Positions 15,571 through 22,337 of a stretch of 64,000 bases of DNA are shown piece by piece. The translations under genes were made by a program, and so were the position numbers. A model generated the notes under the pieces. It had not been told where the DNA came from. It did no database searches and saw only the letters and a program-made list of their open reading frames with translations. The DNA comes from Vicinamibacteria bacterium (lineage in GTDB: Bacteria; Acidobacteriota; Vicinamibacteria; Marinacidobacterales; Marinacidobacteraceae): positions 192,001-256,000 of the forward strand of contig CBDATA010000001.1 in the NCBI GenBank assembly GCA_965199715.1, read 5' to 3'. How positions within the stretch are numbered: position 1 is the first letter of the stretch; every line of letters starts with the position of its first letter.

Positions 15571-17574
15571 ATGATCCTCCGACTCGCCGCCACGCTCCTC
15601 GTCCTCGCCGCCCCGCTCGCCCTCGCCCAGGACCAGCGGGCCATGACCGTCGTGGACATGCTCGAGGTTCCGCGGATCGGCGATCCCCGGCTCTCGCCCG
15701 ACGGGACGGCGCTGCTGTACACGCGCACCGACGCCGACTGGGAGGAGAACCGCCGGGTCACCCACATCCACCGGATCGGCGCGGACGGGACCGGCGACGT
15801 CCGGCTCACGAACGGCGAGCGCGGCGAGTCCAGCCCCCGCTGGTCCCCCGACGGCTTCCGGATCGCGTTCCTCGCGCGGCGGGGCGAGACCCGCCAGATC
15901 CACGTCATCCCGGCGAGCGGCGGCGAAGCGGAGGCGCTCACCGACTTCGGAAGCGCGATCCGCTCCTTCGAGTTCGCCCCGGACGGGTCCATCTTCTTCA
16001 GCGCCCCGGAACCGAAGACCGCCGACGAGAAACGGCGCGAAGAACGCGGCCACGACGTGTTCGCGTTCGACGAGGACTACCGCCAGATCCACCTCCACCG
16101 GGTCGGGGCCGACGGCGAAACCGAGCGGATCACGAGCGGCGACTTCTCGGTGATCGCGTTCCGCCTCTCGGGCGACGGCGGGCGCGTCGTGCATTCCCGG
16201 GCGCCGACGTCGCTGCTCGACAACTCCGACGAGGGCGAAATCTGGATCATGGACGCGAACGGCGGGAACGCCCGCCAGCTCACCGACAACGCCGTCGGCG
16301 AGCGGGGCGGCCAGCTTTCGCCCGACGGGACCGAAGTGCTCTTCACGTCGGCTTCGAGCGCCGAGTTCGAGACCTACTTCAACGGCAACGCGTTCGTCGT
16401 TCCCGCGGCGGGAGGGCCGGCGCGCATCCTGTTCGAGGACTTCCCGTACGACGTGAGCCGCGCCGAGTGGGCGCCCGACGGCTCCATCCGGATGCTCGTG
16501 AACACCGGCGTGCGGAGCCAGATCTTCCGGGCCGTCGAGGGAGACGCGCCCGAACCGGTCACGTCGGGCGACCACTCGGTCGCCGGTTGGCACTTCAACG
16601 GGGACGCGCACGCGCTCGGAATCAATACGCCGACGAACGCCGGCGACGTCCACCTGCTGCCCGACGGGGGCGGCGAGCCGGCGAAGGCGACCGCCGTCTT
16701 CGACTACCTCGCCGACGCGTTCCGCCTGCCCCGGCAGGAAGCCGTCCAGTGGGAGGGCGAGGACGGCGTCATGGTCGAGGGCCTCCTGTACTTTCCCCTC
16801 GGTTACGAGGAAGGAACCCGCTACCCGCTCGTCGTGCAGACCCACGGCGGTCCCCGGTCCTCGGACAAATTCGGGTTCGGACGCTGGAGCAGCTACGTGC
16901 CGGTTCTGGCCGCCCGCGGCTACATGGTGTTCAAGCCCAACTACCGGGGCAGCACCGGCTACGGCGACGAATTCCTGCGCGACATGGTGGGCCACTACTT
17001 CAACCAGGCGCATCTCGACGTGATGGCCGGGGTGGACCACCTCATCGAGCGGGGCCTCGCGGACGGCGACCGCATGGCGAAGATGGGCTGGAGCGCCGGC
17101 GGCCACATGACCAACAAGATCATCACGCACACCGACCGGTTCAAGGCGGCGAGTTCGGGGGCCGGCGCGGTCAACTGGATCTCCATGTACGGACAGAGCG
17201 ACGTGCGCTTCCCCCGCACTCCGTGGTTCGGCGGCACCCCTTGGCAAGAGGATGCGCCGATCGACGCCTACTGGGGCAACTCGCCGCTTAAGGACATCTA
17301 CCGGGCGACGACCCCGACGCTCGTGCTCGTCGGGGAGAACGACGCCCGGGTCCCGATGGCGCAGTCGGTCGAGCTGTACCGCGCGCTCCGGACGAACGGC
17401 GTGGACACCCACCTGTACGTCGCGCCCCGCGCCGGCCACGGCTGGTCCGAGCTCCGGCACGGCCTGTTCAAGGTGAACGTGGAGCTCGACTGGTTCGAGC
17501 GGCACGTGCGCGGCAAGAAGTACGTCTGGGAGACCGCGCCCGGCGACGAGACTCCCGAGGAGGAGACCGAATGA
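15571..17574 (+). CDS. S9 family (acylaminoacyl-peptidase-like) serine peptidase, exported
   Basis: Beta-propeller (W/L)SPDG repeats; HGGP, PNYRGSTGYG, GWSAGG nucleophile, GENDARVP, GHG. Confidence 0.93.
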   Translation: MILRLAATLLVLAAPLALAQDQRAMTVVDMLEVPRIGDPRLSPDGTALLYTRTDADWEENRRVTHIHRIGADGTGDVRLTNGERGESSPRWSPDGFRIAFLARRGETRQIHVIPASGGEAEALTDFGSAIRSFEFAPDGSIFFSAPEPKTADEKRREERGHDVFAFDEDYRQIHLHRVGADGETERITSGDFSVIAFRLSGDGGRVVHSRAPTSLLDNSDEGEIWIMDANGGNARQLTDNAVGERGGQLSPDGTEVLFTSASSAEFETYFNGNAFVVPAAGGPARILFEDFPYDVSRAEWAPDGSIRMLVNTGVRSQIFRAVEGDAPEPVTSGDHSVAGWHFNGDAHALGINTPTNAGDVHLLPDGGGEPAKATAVFDYLADAFRLPRQEAVQWEGEDGVMVEGLLYFPLGYEEGTRYPLVVQTHGGPRSSDKFGFGRWSSYVPVLAARGYMVFKPNYRGSTGYGDEFLRDMVGHYFNQAHLDVMAGVDHLIERGLADGDRMAKMGWSAGGHMTNKIITHTDRFKAASSGAGAVNWISMYGQSDVRFPRTPWFGGTPWQEDAPIDAYWGNSPLKDIYRATTPTLVLVGENDARVPMAQSVELYRALRTNGVDTHLYVAPRAGHGWSELRHGLFKVNVELDWFERHVRGKKYVWETAPGDETPEEETE

Positions 17575-18662
17575 CCCAAAATCCCATGATCCGAACGACG
17601 ACACTCGCGCTTGCGCTCCTCGCCGGCTGCGCCGGCGAGCCAACTCCGCCGCCCGCCGATCCGTGGGCGGACCTCCTGAACGAGGCGCGGGAAGCCGCGG
17701 GCAGCCCGGGGCTCTCGGCCGCGGTCGCGATCGACGGCGAGATCATCTGGACCGGCGCGTCCGGCCTCGCCGACGTGGAAAACCAGGTGCCCGCGACGGC
17801 CGAGAGCGTGTACCGGATCGCCTCCATCTCGAAGCCGATCGCCTCCACCGCGATCATGCAGCTCGTCGAGCGCGGCCAGCTCGACCTCGACGACACGATC
17901 CAGACATGGTTCCCGGCGTTTCCGGAGAAGGAGCACGCGGTCACGATCCGGCACCTGATGACCCACACGTCGGGGATCCGCCACTACCTCCCGGGCGAGA
18001 TGGACATGAAGGACCACTTCGACACCCTCGAGGAGGCCATCGAGATCTTCAAGGAGGACCCGCTCCTGTTCGAGCCGGGGACCGACTACTCCTACTCTTC
18101 GTACGCCTACAACCTGCTCGCCGGCGTCGTGGAGACGATCTCCGGGCAGTCCTTCGAGGACTACCTCGTCGAGAACGTCTGGGCGCCGGCCGGGATGACG
18201 ACGACGTACCTTGAGCACCAGGGGCCCCTCGTTCCGCACCGGGTGCGTCAGTACGTCAAGGCCGACACTCCGGATCTCGTCGCCAACGCGCCCTTCGCCG
18301 ATCTCTCCATCAAGTGGGCGGGCGGGGGCATGATCTCCACCGCCCCGGACCTCGTCCGCTTCGCGCTCGCGATCGACGACGAGACGCTCATGGCGCCCTC
18401 GACGCACGACATGATGACGACCCGCTACGAGCTCGCCGGCGGGACGGTCAGCGACTACGCGCTCGGCTGGCGGATCGCCGACGACGAGGCGGGGACCTGG
18501 GTCGCGCACTCGGGCGGCGCCACCGGCGGGACGACCCACCTGCTCCGGCTGCCGGCCCGGGGGCTCGCCGTCGCCCTCACGGCGAACGTGCAGAGCGGAG
18601 GGGGGCTCCCCGAGACGGCGCGCCGGTTCGCCGATCTGGCGCTCGGCGGCGCGACGCCCTGA
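17571..18662 (+). CDS. Beta-lactamase-like serine hydrolase (S12), lipoprotein
   Basis: LAGC lipobox; RIASISK (SxxK), HLMTHTSGI, YSYSSYAY, HSGG. Confidence 0.9.
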   Translation: MTQNPMIRTTTLALALLAGCAGEPTPPPADPWADLLNEAREAAGSPGLSAAVAIDGEIIWTGASGLADVENQVPATAESVYRIASISKPIASTAIMQLVERGQLDLDDTIQTWFPAFPEKEHAVTIRHLMTHTSGIRHYLPGEMDMKDHFDTLEEAIEIFKEDPLLFEPGTDYSYSSYAYNLLAGVVETISGQSFEDYLVENVWAPAGMTTTYLEHQGPLVPHRVRQYVKADTPDLVANAPFADLSIKWAGGGMISTAPDLVRFALAIDDETLMAPSTHDMMTTRYELAGGTVSDYALGWRIADDEAGTWVAHSGGATGGTTHLLRLPARGLAVALTANVQSGGGLPETARRFADLALGGATP

Positions 18663-18676
18663 TCTCTACCCGATCT

Positions 18677-19081
18677 CTATTCGTCGGACGCGCCGGGATA
18701 GACCCGCTCGCCCTCGTAGTCCCGGAGGCCGCAGAAACCTGAGACCTCGAATCCGTTGGCAGTCAGCAACTCCGCGGCACGCGCGGCTCTTCCGCCCCCC
18801 TGTCAAGCAGTGAGGATCGGGACTCCCCGGGGCAGCTCGCCGAGCCTCCCCTCGAGCTCGTCGATCGGGATGTGGACGAAGCCGTCGATCGTGCCGTGCT
18901 CGGCCAGTTCCTCGGCCGTGCGCACGTCGAGCAGCAGCGCGCCGTCCTGAAGGGCGCCGTCGATGTCGGCGGCCTCGACGCGGGGCGCCGCGTCGGGAGC
19001 GTCGGCCTCCTGCTCGCCGGCGCCGCATCCGAGCGCGAGCAGCAGCAGGCCCGCCGGGACCAGTGTCCGAACCATGGTCAT
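18677..19081 (-). CDS. Rhodanese-domain lipoprotein, probable selenoprotein (Sec at TGA 18803-18805)
   Basis: LALGC lipobox; LLDVRT..E...GTI.G..HIP; PILTA-TGA-QGGGRAARAAELL continues in frame to TAG 18677-18679. Confidence 0.85.
18772..18787 (-). promoter_or_regulatory. Candidate bacterial SECIS hairpin
   Basis: GCCGCGCGUGCCGCGG starts 15 nt after the UGA; CCGCG/CGCGG stem with a CGUGC loop; identical to the element in the upstream paralog. Confidence 0.65.
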
Positions 19082-19428
19082 GCCTCCTCGGGCAGCGGAC
19101 GGTACTCCCGTTCGCCGACGTAGTCCTTGAGACCGGAAAAGCCGATCACTTCCCGGCCGGCCCGTTGGAGAATCGCCGCGGCACGCGCGGCCCGGGGGCC
19201 GACCATTCAAGTCGTGAGGATCGGGCGGTCCGTCGGCACCTCGTCCACGCGGTCCGCCAGCTCGCCCAGGTGGATGTGCAACGCCCCCGGAATCGTGCCC
19301 GACTCCGCTAGTTCGACCGCGGTGCGCACGTCCAGCAGCACCACGCCGGGACGGGAGCGGACCTCGTCGATCCGGTCGGCCGCGACGAAGGGGGCGCGAG
19401 TTCCGAGGACCCGTCCGATGACGCTCAC
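19078..19428 (-). CDS. Cytoplasmic single-domain rhodanese, probable selenoprotein (Sec at TGA 19207-19209)
   Basis: LLDVRTAVELAESGTIPGALHIH; PILTT-TGA-MVGPRAARAAAILQRAG continues in frame to TGA 19078-19080, which overlaps the next start (ATGA). Confidence 0.85.
19176..19191 (-). promoter_or_regulatory. Candidate bacterial SECIS hairpin
   Basis: Same 16-mer GCCGCGCGUGCCGCGG, 15 nt after the UGA. Confidence 0.65.
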
Positions 19429-19449
19429 GGGAGCCGGATGGTATCCGAC

Positions 19450-19722
19450 TCAGACGCGGACCCTGCGCGCGTGCGCCCGCGGCGGCAGCACGTCGGCGAG
19501 CCGCAGTCCCCGTCCCTTCACGTACGCGAGCAGGCCCTTCTTGTCGATCGTCCGCAGGGCGCGAGCGGACAGGCGCAGGCGCACCGACCGGCCCAGCTCG
19601 GGCACCCACACCGACTTCCACTGCAGGTTGGGAAGCTGGCGCCGCTTGTTGCGGTTGTTGGCGTGGCTGACCGAGTTCCCGGTCAGCGGGCGCTTGCCGG
19701 TCAGCGGGCAGGTGCGGGACAT
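19450..19722 (-). CDS. rpmB: 50S ribosomal protein L28
   Basis: MSRTCPLTGKRPLTGNSVSHANNRNKRRQLPNLQ. Confidence 0.96.
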   Translation of the reverse strand: MSRTCPLTGKRPLTGNSVSHANNRNKRRQLPNLQWKSVWVPELGRSVRLRLSARALRTIDKKGLLAYVKGRGLRLADVLPPRAHARRVRV

Positions 19723-19740
19723 GGGAACGGTTAATTTAGC

Positions 19741-22337
19741 TCAATTCAGGTCAAGTCCCTCGACCGTCGCGCCGTTGATCGCGTTCAGGAACAGCTTGTA
19801 GGTGCCCCGGGGCTGGCCGCGGAACTGGGGCCGGAACCCGAAGAGCACGATCTCGCCGGCGCCCCGGGGAATCCGGGCCATGGCGATCTTGCCCCCGATC
19901 GCGTCCTCCTCGCCGTATGCCCAGCCGCTCATCAGCAGATCCTCGTCGGCGTAGCGGGCGACGACCTCCACGTTCGGCGGCGGCTGCGCCGGCACGGTCT
20001 CCGCCCCGCCCTCGCGGGTGCGCGGGAGCGTGACGGCCTCGAACGCGCGGCTGCGCACGAACTGGGTCGCCACCTCGGGGCGCATCCCGAAGGCCAGGGG
20101 ATGCGTCGAGTCCACGTGCGCCCGGATCAGCGAGCCGGGGATGAAGAACCGGTCGTCGGCGAGGTTCGCCGTGGTGTTGCGCAGCGGGAGCCCGAACTGG
20201 GCCACGACGAAGTCGCTCGCCGCGTCGAGCGCGATGAGCGTGCCGCCGTCCTCCACGAAGCGGGCGAGCGCCAGCGAGCCCTCGAGGCCGATCCCGCCGA
20301 CGTACTGCTCGGGCATCGAGCCGGGGGCGTGCCCGTTCAGGATCTGCGCCGGGCTCTGGTGCGGCAGGATGATGACGTCCAGCCCCGAGAGCTCGCCGTC
20401 CCGGACGTCGTCGTCGTGGAGCGTCCGCAGGTCGTATTCGTAGCCCTCGAGGAGCCAGCGGGTCCATCCTTCGTCCATGCTCGCCACCCACGACTTGTAG
20501 AGGCCGACCCGCGCCGGCTCGAGCGGCAGCAGCGCCGCGCCCGGCGCCTCCGCGAGGCCGGCGACGTCGAGGCCGAGCTCGGTCGCGATCCCCTCCACGT
20601 CGGCGTCCGTCCCCCGGATCACGAGTGTCCCCGCCGGGAACTCCTCGTCCCCGGAGCGAAACGAGGCGCCCGCCCAAGCCACCTCGGCGCCGGCGGCGAG
20701 GAGCCGGTTCTGCGCGAGGATCGCCGCGTTCGGGCGATGCGAGACGGCGTAGCCGAATCCGGGGCTCCCCGAAACCGCGCCGTCGGGCGCCCGCACCGGG
20801 CCCCGAACCGGATCCAGGGAAACGCCGGGAACGCCGGGAACGACCTCGACGTCCACCCCCATCTGCATCGGGAGCGTCCAGCCGGCGAGGTCGTAGGGCG
20901 GATCCGGCGGGCCGTCCGGCGTGCGGCGCCGGTCCGGATACGCCTGCGGCTCGAGGAGATCCTCGGCGTAGGCCCGGAACGCCTGCGTTCCGGCGATCAC
21001 GTACGAGCCCGCGCCGAAGCTCTCGCCGCCCGCCTCGAAGTCCTCGGCGGCGCGCCCGATCTCGATCCCGCCGTCGAGCAGCACGTTCACGAGCGCGGCG
21101 GCCTCGCCCGGGTCCCACTGCTCCGCCGGAATCACCCAGCTCGTCCCGCTCTGCTCGATGGCGTCGCGGCCCATGCGCCAGATGTCGAAGAGCCACTTCT
21201 CGCGCAGGTCCGCGGCGACGTCGAGCACCGCGATCGAGGCGGTGAGCGTGTAACGCACCGGATCCGAGAAATGCGACGGGCCGCCCGGCCACGGGTACGG
21301 GTAGAAGACGTCCGTCCCGTCGGTCGGCGCCGCCTGCCCCCGCCGGGGGTTGCCGACGAAGCGGGGGCGATCCTCCGGTTCGTACGTCCTCGGCGAGGCC
21401 GAGGCGTGCGAGGTCTCGGTGAGCAGGCCGATCATGTTGTGGAAGTACGGCACCGTGCGCATGCCCCCGTTCCACCACATCGAATAGATCATGTCGGACA
21501 CCGCGCCCGGCATGCGCTTCATGGCGAAGCGGTTGGACATCGCCGAGCCGATGAGGTTCACCGACGTGGTCACGCCCGGGTGGATGCGCGGGTTCACCGG
21601 GTCGGCGAACGGCGGCAGGAAGATGCGCGCCCACGCCGGACCCGTCTGGTGGTGGTTGTACACGATCTGCGGGAACCACTCCCGGTACAGCTTCCGGCTC
21701 ACCGCGGCCGTCTCCGGCATGTTGTTCATGAACCAGTCGCGGTTGTTGTCGTGCCCGACGTAGTGATGGTAGAGCTCGGGCGGGCGGGTGTTCTCCCACT
21801 GCGTCTCGCGGTTGCGGTGGTACCACGAGGCCACGATGTCGAGACCGTCGGGGTTCATGCAGGGCATGAGGATCAGCACCACGTTCTCGCGGATGTTCTC
21901 CATCTCCGCCGATTCCTCGGTCGCGACCCGGTGGGCCAGCAGCGGCGCCATCTGCGCGGGAGCGACCTCGGTGGCGTGGAGGCCGGCGTCGATCCACACG
22001 ACGGCCTTCCCGTCGGCGGCGAGCCGACGCGCCTCGTCCTCCCCGATGCGGGCGTTCGCGAGCCGCGACGCCGTCTCCTTGTGCGCGTCGAGCGAAGCGA
22101 GGTTCTCCTCCGACGAGATGTACAGCACGATCAGGGGCTTTCCCAGCACCGACTGGCCGATCTCCTCGAGCTGGACCCGGGGCGAGGCCTCGGCGAGGCT
22201 GCGGTAGTAGTCGAGGAGCGGCTCCCAGAGCGCGAGCTGGTAGTCGTCGCCGGGCGCGAAGCCGAGCGCCGACGCCGGATCGGGGACCTGCGCCGCCGCC
22301 GGGCTCGCGAGCAGCGCGAGCGAGAGAACCGCGGACC

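Follow-up and report, generated by a model that had tools for sequence, protein, structure and literature searches.

Two adjacent rhodanese genes, here called rhd1 and rhd2, lie on the minus strand of a stretch of Vicinamibacteria (Acidobacteriota) DNA, and each of them contains an in-frame TGA in its active-site loop, which raises the question of whether these are two damaged genes or two selenoproteins and, in the second case, where in the cell they act and on what. The stretch, referred to below as the window, is 64,000 nucleotides (nt) long and corresponds to positions 192001-256000 of contig C2 of a 2.66-Mb genome, assembled in two contigs and estimated to be 93% complete. An earlier note on the window had proposed a tandem pair of selenocysteine (Sec)-containing rhodaneses, one cytoplasmic and one a lipoprotein, and the TGA coordinates, the read-through peptides and the ATGA overlap that it quoted all proved exact. 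Our answer is that both TGAs are almost certainly genuine Sec codons, decoded by SelB and Sec-tRNA(Sec) under the direction of a hairpin, with a selenolate as the nucleophile of a U-x-x-G-x-R loop.

The first gene, rhd1 (19428..19078, minus), starts with GTG at 19428, where 16 of 19 orthologues have ATG at the equivalent position, and ends with TGA at 19080-19078. Its product is a rhodanese selenoprotein of 116 residues, built from a single domain and without a signal peptide, whose Sec codon (UGA, residue 74; 19209-19207, minus) stands at the head of the active-site loop U-M-V-G-P-R. The second gene, rhd2 (19081..18677, minus), starts with ATG at 19081 (or 19075), ends with TAG at 18679-18677 and encodes a 134-residue precursor with a lipoprotein-type signal peptide, the Sec codon (UGA, residue 93; 18805-18803, minus) opening the loop U-Q-G-G-G-R. 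The stop of rhd1 and the start of rhd2 overlap as ATGA at 19078-19081. As the earlier note had observed, the two proteins stay homologous past the TGA: when read through, they share 56% identity over 98 residues that span it (E 3e-29).

Both read-through proteins are recognizable rhodaneses. The Pfam family Rhodanese (PF00581) spans the TGA in rhd1 (residues 23-94, 41.3 bits, E 2.2e-10) as well as in rhd2 (residues 39-112, 40.6 bits, E 3.6e-10), against a curated cut-off of 22.2 bits, and the column alignment of rhd1 with the solved domains 3icr (...ITCQLGMRG...) and 5ve3 (...TVCRAGGRS...) puts its TGA codon on the catalytic Cys, exactly where the earlier note had placed it. The AlphaFold2 model of rhd2 reached a mean predicted local distance difference test score (pLDDT) of 86.4; averaged in blocks of 10 residues, the score is 95-98 from residue 31 to residue 130, and residues 1-30 are unstructured and of low confidence. 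The solved folds nearest to this model, as found with Foldseek, were all rhodanese domains, namely those of persulfide reductase, CoADR-RHD and PRF. The active-site loop of sulfurtransferase-type rhodaneses counts six residues (C-x4-R/T) and that of the Cdc25/Acr2 phosphatase/arsenate-reductase type seven (C-x5-R), and by this loop-length rule rhd1 and rhd2, with six residues each (U-x-x-G-x-R), belong to the former.

The conservation of the TGA was followed at several depths. In a six-frame search of 41 genomes (the own genome and others of the same genus, family and order; close matches defined by E <= 1e-21), one in-frame TGA was found in all 57 close matches, one row of which also overran the end of the gene into a TAA. 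The TGA occupies the identical codon in 19/19 rhd1 and 19/19 rhd2 orthologues of the family (from 20 loci), and likewise in every one of the 21 rhd1 orthologues that were pulled out. Across the class, matches at E <= 1e-12 were obtained from 50 of 121 sampled genomes, and the TGA was present in 79 of 82 rows, corresponding to 48 genomes with a TGA form. Both the 41- and the 121-genome tallies include one unpublished genome (G033), which contributes one row without the TGA form and on which no claim depends. At the locus itself, both TGAs were unchanged in contigs from four other runs (three metatranscriptome libraries and one apparent DNA library) that covered 18600-19800; all four runs belong to one study and may include the source of the window. 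The metatranscriptome contigs speak for presence only, not for transcription, since such libraries may hold DNA and the contigs cross convergent genes. Only two differences were seen in these contigs, namely 18704 C>G, which is synonymous (rhd2 Arg126) and occurred in two RNA-library assemblies, and 19564 A>G, located in the neighbouring gene rpmB and present in all four.

The codons that follow the TGA evolve as coding sequence. The mean pairwise ratio of nonsynonymous to synonymous substitutions (dN/dS; Nei-Gojobori, 168-171 pairs each, family orthologues) over the 38 codons after the TGA was 0.156 for rhd1 and 0.136 for rhd2, compared with 0.104 and 0.114 before it, and at many of the downstream codons the amino acid is kept while two to four synonymous codons are in use. 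The ~38 post-TGA codons are therefore under purifying selection, the earlier note having held that a lack of conservation downstream would speak against its proposal. Homologues with Cys in place of Sec also exist, in other taxa. A profile built from 21 read-through sequences was searched against 1.84 billion representative proteins, and although multi-domain rhodanese repeat proteins dominated the top of the results, 16 short proteins could be examined among the 150 matches listed: 15 were full-length single-domain proteins, most of them with an N-terminal signal peptide and all 15 with Cys at the Sec column, and the remaining one was a 73-residue fragment ending at the position of the rhd1 TGA. 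Among the Cys-bearing relatives, P0175 (…ILVACQGGGRASR…GYCGL…YPEG) and P0174 are 48% and 54% identical to rhd2, respectively.

The genome also encodes what is required for reading UGA as Sec, and every component that the earlier note had named as worth looking for was detected: a tRNA-Sec (69.9 bits against a cut-off of 47; reported by ARAGORN as tRNA-SeC with anticodon tca), SelA (401.9 bits), the SelB-specific winged-helix domain (63.7 bits) and SelD (248.3 bits). The tRNA-Sec gene (L001 1498-1677) shares its strand with a tRNA-Ala (ggc) gene at a distance of 8 nt. The SelD match (G000:C1:1232508-1233425, minus) lies inside a 767-residue open frame, which may be a domain fusion or merely a long frame in G+C-rich DNA. 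In the class-wide sample, SelA was present in 112 of the 121 genomes and in 47 of the 48 holders of the TGA form (the exception is 86% complete); taken alone, this co-occurrence counts as weak evidence, because almost the whole class has SelA.

Could the two genes instead be truncated or decaying, or could a standard amino acid be inserted at the UGA, by near-cognate Trp or Cys decoding or under a variant code? This is extremely improbable. Database gene calls do end at the TGA, as the earlier note had predicted for standard gene callers, and rhd1 offers a route by which termination could be followed by a fresh start, as the codon directly after its UGA (19204-19206, minus) is ATG in 21/21 orthologues (loop U-M-V/I-G-P-R), a conserved Met codon that also makes a possible re-initiation site. 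The corresponding codon of rhd2 is CAG, not ATG, and a rhodanese cut within its active-site loop would be left without the catalytic residue. Further points against this reading are that every close homologue, across several families, keeps the TGA at this codon, that the sequence downstream of it is under purifying selection, that TGA is the ordinary stop of rhd1 and that the genome has the full Sec machinery.

A Sec insertion sequence (SECIS)-type hairpin is the remaining element to be expected of a bacterial Sec codon, and in both genes one begins 15 nt after the UGA. In rhd1 (19191-19175, minus) it consists of the stem GCCGCG/CGCGGC closing the loop CGUGC (GCCGCG-CGUGC-CGCGGC), and rhd2 (18787-18771, minus) shares the same 16 bases in the same register, leaving the stem CCGCG/CGCGG with an outer G.A unpaired and the loop CGUGC. 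Single-copy homologues from two further families of the order have the same element behind their UGA, likewise in register. The bacterial SECIS (bSECIS) model, as given in a figure legend of a 2026 review, asks for a stem of 4-16 base pairs (bp), a loop of 3-9 nt with a G as one of its first two bases, a UGA-to-loop distance of 16-37 nt and a minimum free energy of <= -7.5 kcal/mol (PMC13188914, Fig. 2 legend). Both hairpins fit this model, with stems of 6 bp (rhd1) and 5 bp (rhd2), 5-nt loops that lie 21 nt from the UGA and whose second base, a G, precedes U or G, and energies of -9.9 and -7.8 kcal/mol, respectively, when folded alone.

The strongest evidence for a recoding hairpin is the constraint on synonymous sites in rhd2. 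Codons +4 to +11 after its UGA (GGA AGA GCC GCG CGT GCC GCG GAG) are base-identical in 19/19 orthologues, including AGA, a rare Arg codon, and all eight degenerate codon columns of the hairpin region show no variation, a state shared by 7 of 53 such columns in the rest of the gene (Fisher p 2e-6); this test drew on related sequences, but both sets of columns share one tree. For rhd1, the support comes from compensation within the stem. A-U has replaced a G-C pair once, U-A a C-G pair once and U-G a C-G pair twice, so that compensatory changes are seen at two pairs and G-U wobble at one, and over 44 distinct rows 93.2% of the cells can pair and two of the six stem pairs show a double change, a result equalled by only 1 of 500 shuffles. 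Several observations pull in the other direction. The hairpin codons of rhd1 are less rigid (0/8 columns invariant), and its covariation is thin, with one sequence for each of the two pairs and three pairs that never vary. Neither hairpin is more stable than dinucleotide shuffles, be it alone (z -1.24 and -0.61) or in contexts of 44-60 nt (z -0.41 to +1.23). Of the six longer contexts that were folded (four of 56-60 nt and two of 44 nt), two retain the stem in their minimum-energy structure, and the remaining four have a shorter stem or another structure in its place. In a genome of ~70% G+C, energy adds nothing, and the SECIS call is consequently drawn from conservation only.

The hairpins can be set beside those of other genes that appear to use Sec in the same genome. 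A genome-wide scan for TGAs flanked on both sides by stop-free frames rich in G+C at the third codon position (GC3) returned 168 positions, of which 43 remained when a hairpin 8-24 nt downstream was required. Besides rhd1, five of these 43 candidates carry a classic selenoprotein motif and match a redox Pfam family across the TGA: Thioredoxin_3 (UPYC), AhpC/TSA (UPFC, with a signal peptide), OsmC, the PCYCGC family (T-U-P-I-C) and CMD/AhpD (C-H-Y-U), with loci on G000:C1 at ~131299 (+), 363627 (+), 364711 (+), 2327470 (-) and 1605936 (-). Their hairpins begin 11-14 nt after the UGA and have the loops GUC, GGC or GGGC, so the rhodanese elements are placed like the other candidate SECIS elements of the genome. 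The scan is not an exhaustive selenoproteome, as it missed rhd2. No match to Molybdopterin (PF00384) was obtained in the whole genome (93% complete), and formate dehydrogenase, the commonest bacterial selenoprotein, was thus not found, which indicates that the Sec machinery is not kept for this enzyme and serves a set of small proteins of redox and sulfur metabolism. Three genomes of the same order (L048, L050 and L051 in G035, G037 and G028, respectively) contain a candidate for a rhodanese selenoprotein of another type (…TIVY-U-AVGGRSR…); it has a helical C-terminal extension of ~190 residues and its own hairpin, GCAGC-CGGGUU-GCUGC, after the TGA.

The two enzymes probably work in different compartments, with rhd1 in the cytoplasm and rhd2 exported, lipid-anchored through Cys19 and held on a short acidic linker, as judged from their N-termini. 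That of rhd2, MTMVRTLVPAGLLLLALGC, passes the classical lipobox pattern of PROSITE, with a signal peptide (19025..19081, minus) whose lipobox L-A-L-G-C occupies residues 15-19 and supplies Cys19, just as the earlier note had described for one of its two forms; the other form, rhd1, has no lipoprotein signal. The same pattern is passed by 19 of 31 rhd2-type and single-copy homologues and no such motif occurs in any of 21 rhd1 sequences (0/21). Ten of the 12 homologues that do not pass have G-W-G-C behind a charged, hydrophobic leader, and many rhd2 orthologues have a tether rich in Pro, Glu and Ala after the lipobox Cys.

The pair is a stable feature of one family of marine and sponge Vicinamibacteria. 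In 23 of 24 other genomes of this family rhd1 and rhd2 stand side by side (the exception is 89% complete, with some of its bases withheld), which, together with the TGA and Cys homologues described above, is the picture that the earlier note had suggested searching for. Other families have the exported type only, in one to six copies. In a maximum-likelihood tree built from 65 rows and 95 columns and rooted at the midpoint only to draw it, all rhd1 sequences form one clade (100/96) and all rhd2 sequences another (99/93), so that the duplication predates the diversification of the family, while Cys and Sec forms interleave; the tree supports the paralogue clades, not the direction of Sec/Cys changes. 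The exported form is the older and more widespread one in the class, and the signal-less rhd1 is a paralogue that became fixed before one family diversified. The upper end of the copy range is seen in G111, a member of the same order with a 10-Mb genome, which has six lipoprotein-type Sec-rhodanese copies on contig C1, 56-58% identical to rhd2, five of them in 155-residue frames and one in a 144-residue frame, and these may represent a repeated or mobile cassette.

The earlier note had gone further and suggested a coupled relay in which the two proteins pass sulfane sulfur or selenium across the membrane. The tandem in nearly all genomes of the family, the old and well-supported paralogue clades and the opposite predicted compartments are what such a relay would lead one to expect, but beyond adjacency it gained no support: no membrane carrier or sulfur-metabolism partner was seen beside the pair here or at related loci, and the exported form occurs alone in other families of the order as well as in other orders of the class. 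Nor is the start/stop overlap conserved. In nine other pairs with assigned starts the spacing between rhd1 and rhd2 ranges from -1 to 64 nt, and the ATGA is particular to this genome, so that translational coupling, which the note had read from it, does not hold as a general feature. We regard the relay as highly improbable.

As to the chemistry, the six-residue loops, together with nearest relatives that carry sulfane sulfur on their catalytic Cys, favour sulfane-sulfur transfer. The Sec selenolate would accept sulfane sulfur from thiosulfate, a persulfide or a polysulfide, forming an Se-S intermediate, and the bound sulfur would then be handed to a thiol or to another acceptor, with one rhodanese acting on each side of the inner membrane, rhd1 inside and rhd2 outside. 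Transfer through an Se-S intermediate by one enzyme per membrane side, which is suggested by family membership, has about an even chance of being correct. Taken as a whole, the explanation that joins Sec decoding, opposite compartments, sulfane-sulfur chemistry and the paralogue history outlined above is very likely the best one for the locus. There are points that count against it. The localisation is drawn from motifs only, with the strict lipobox pattern in just 19 of the 31 exported-type sequences; Pfam searches of ten neighbouring open reading frames (ORFs) revealed no sulfur-related or substrate-indicating gene; the reviews, in the passages available, list rhodanese selenoproteins as predicted, and no report of selenium incorporation into any of them was found in print; and a second Cys, conserved in rhd2, may point to redox chemistry of another kind than plain sulfur transfer.

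This second Cys (Cys117, in GFCGL; 18731..18733, minus) is situated 24 residues after the Sec and gives rise to the most serious alternative for the function, in which selenolate and Cys form a selenenyl-sulfide redox pair and the exported form, instead of being a simple sulfur transferase, is a periplasmic oxidoreductase that would reduce, for example, persulfides, polysulfides, disulfides or peroxides. The residue is kept in the exported Sec forms (19/19 rhd2 and 9/9 single-copy sequences) and in 12 of 15 Cys-form homologues, yet the column holds Ser in 15 of 19 rhd1. Two further points fit the same idea: the other candidate selenoproteins found in the genome all belong to thiol-redox families, and among solved structures the closest relatives are rhodanese domains that form part of persulfide and CoA-disulfide reductases. 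On the other hand, the active-site loop is kept in three of the 15 Cys forms and in most rhd1 although they have no second Cys, and no DsbD/CcdA-like electron-donor partner was seen among the ten neighbouring ORFs or in the flanks of single-copy loci. We consider the redox pair possible, though clearly unlikely. Its more specific version, that the lipid-anchored Sec-rhodanese is a new kind of periplasmic selenenyl-sulfide selenoenzyme, such as an envelope persulfide/polysulfide reductase or scavenger, with rhd1 as its cytoplasmic counterpart, is a speculative proposal with a small chance of being right; if true, it would mean a two-compartment, selenium-based handling of reactive sulfur species in sponge-associated and marine Vicinamibacteria.

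Selenium itself could also be the cargo, bound as a perselenide or selenotrisulfide and either delivered, with rhd1 feeding SelD inside, or detoxified, with selenite scavenged outside. Rhodanese-bound selenium is able to serve selenophosphate synthesis in vitro, and the genome is heavily invested in Sec: at least seven of its genes contain such a TGA, and no molybdopterin enzyme was found in it; rhd1 and rhd2 are, however, unlinked to selD, selA and selB, and their Cys-form homologues are widespread, which leaves selenium handling improbable compared with the transfer of sulfane sulfur favoured here.

Selenoproteins of this general kind are not new, and the earlier note was right that rhodanese-related ones had been reported: predictions of them go back to the first surveys of prokaryotic and of marine selenoproteomes (PMC1088965, PMC2398784), a 2022 review places them under 'Predicted' in the part available, and the 2026 review catalogues, again as predictions, five forms, of which 'form 2' and 'form 4' have UxxG (PMC13188914). 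Forms 2 and 4 share with our proteins PF00581, a Sec at the catalytic position and the U-x-x-G motif (UMVG in rhd1, UQGG in rhd2), a likeness by domain and motif description, not by sequence alignment. The 'COG0607' Sec-sulfurtransferases of marine metagenomes are, from the portion of that survey at hand, of the same kind, marine and likewise predicted only (PMC2398784). The table passages of the 2026 review make no mention of a lipoprotein signal, of cytoplasmic and exported forms in tandem or of another conserved Cys, and a term search of the review gave 0 occurrences of 'lipoprotein', 'periplasm' and 'Acidobacteri' (PMC13188914); a full-text literature search on selenoprotein, rhodanese and Acidobacteri* gave two papers, in the first of which 'rhodanese' appears solely inside a cited title. 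Within these sources, the lipoprotein form, the second conserved Cys and the family-wide pairing of a cytoplasmic with an exported form are the only features that we did not find described, and rhd1 and rhd2 are real, well-supported members, possibly a new subfamily, of a known but uncharacterised kind of rhodanese selenoprotein.

Comparison with named families led to the same placement. No NCBIfam naming model scored over its cut-off for either protein. NF041203 (rhodanese_LYCAU, 'form 3', CxU), an NCBI naming model that likewise describes a small rhodanese selenoprotein family, gave 18.2 bits for rhd1, where its cut-off is 115, and did not match rhd2 at E <= 0.01, and its CxU is absent: with T-T-U in rhd1 and T-A-U in rhd2, neither has a Cys two residues before the Sec. 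A TsoB rhodanese/DsbD fusion-like protein (NF045694, UxxxxU) was also rejected, as there was no NCBIfam match at E <= 0.01 and each protein here has one Sec. The GlpE equivalog (NF001195) reached 18.9 bits against a cut-off of 102, so the GlpE/PspE type that the earlier note had assigned applies loosely and not as membership of the GlpE model. Escherichia coli GlpE and PspE are likewise stand-alone rhodanese domains of ~100 residues, one cytoplasmic and one exported, with only weak similarity to ours, and their catalytic residue is Cys where rhd1 and rhd2 have Sec; PspE is, moreover, soluble and not lipid-anchored. The best sequence matches among solved structures (E 1.6e-9 to 1e-6) were the rhodanese domains of 3nta and 3ntd (NADH-dependent persulfide reductase), 3icr (CoA-disulfide reductase-RHD) and 5ve3 (persulfide dioxygenase-rhodanese fusion), which were also the best folds (Foldseek E 9e-8 to 6e-6, root-mean-square deviation 1.2-2.5 A, 34-39% identity). 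They share the catalytic column and loop length with rhd1 and rhd2 but carry Cys and are C-terminal domains of larger cytoplasmic flavo- or metallo-enzymes, whereas our proteins stand alone, carry Sec and include one that is predicted to be exported.

In a collection of 5.8 billion proteins, the best 120 of 228 matches to rhd2 were all fragments of 80-111 residues that covered <=69% of the query and ended at the TGA, and they were unnamed, the few named ones being called hypothetical protein. Given these fragments and the lack of an NCBIfam model at its cut-off, a naming model would correct hundreds of records. According to the review passages available, there is no bench study of a rhodanese selenoprotein; the Sec and Cys forms of one small domain, with cytoplasmic and exported paralogues adjoining, offer a natural comparison for what selenium contributes to rhodanese chemistry.

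The surroundings of the pair are varied. Upstream, as the earlier note had stated, lies rpmB (ribosomal protein L28; 19722-19450, minus; 90-aa ORF, Pfam PF00830, 95.6 bits), which is context outside the module and is separated from rhd1 by a gap of 21 nt; the gene in this upstream position varies between genera. The ten neighbouring ORFs matched TPR/GWxTD, a TonB-type barrel, an S9 peptidase, a beta-lactamase-family hydrolase and an M14 peptidase, as well as KARI, dehydrogenases and Vut_1. In the flanks of five single-copy loci, three of which had ORFs passing the filter, no common or sulfur-related neighbour was recognized by eye. The string TACCAT, which the earlier note had taken for a -10-like box of the pair, is present, although a private promoter is not supported, as a scan of 18400-20000 for sigma-70 consensus promoters and terminators returned 0 sites of either kind. 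No terminator-like hairpin was seen between the rhd2 stop and the gene that converges on it, which encodes a beta-lactamase-family serine hydrolase (17571-18662, plus; Pfam PF00144, 254 bits) and ends 14 nt from the rhd2 stop.

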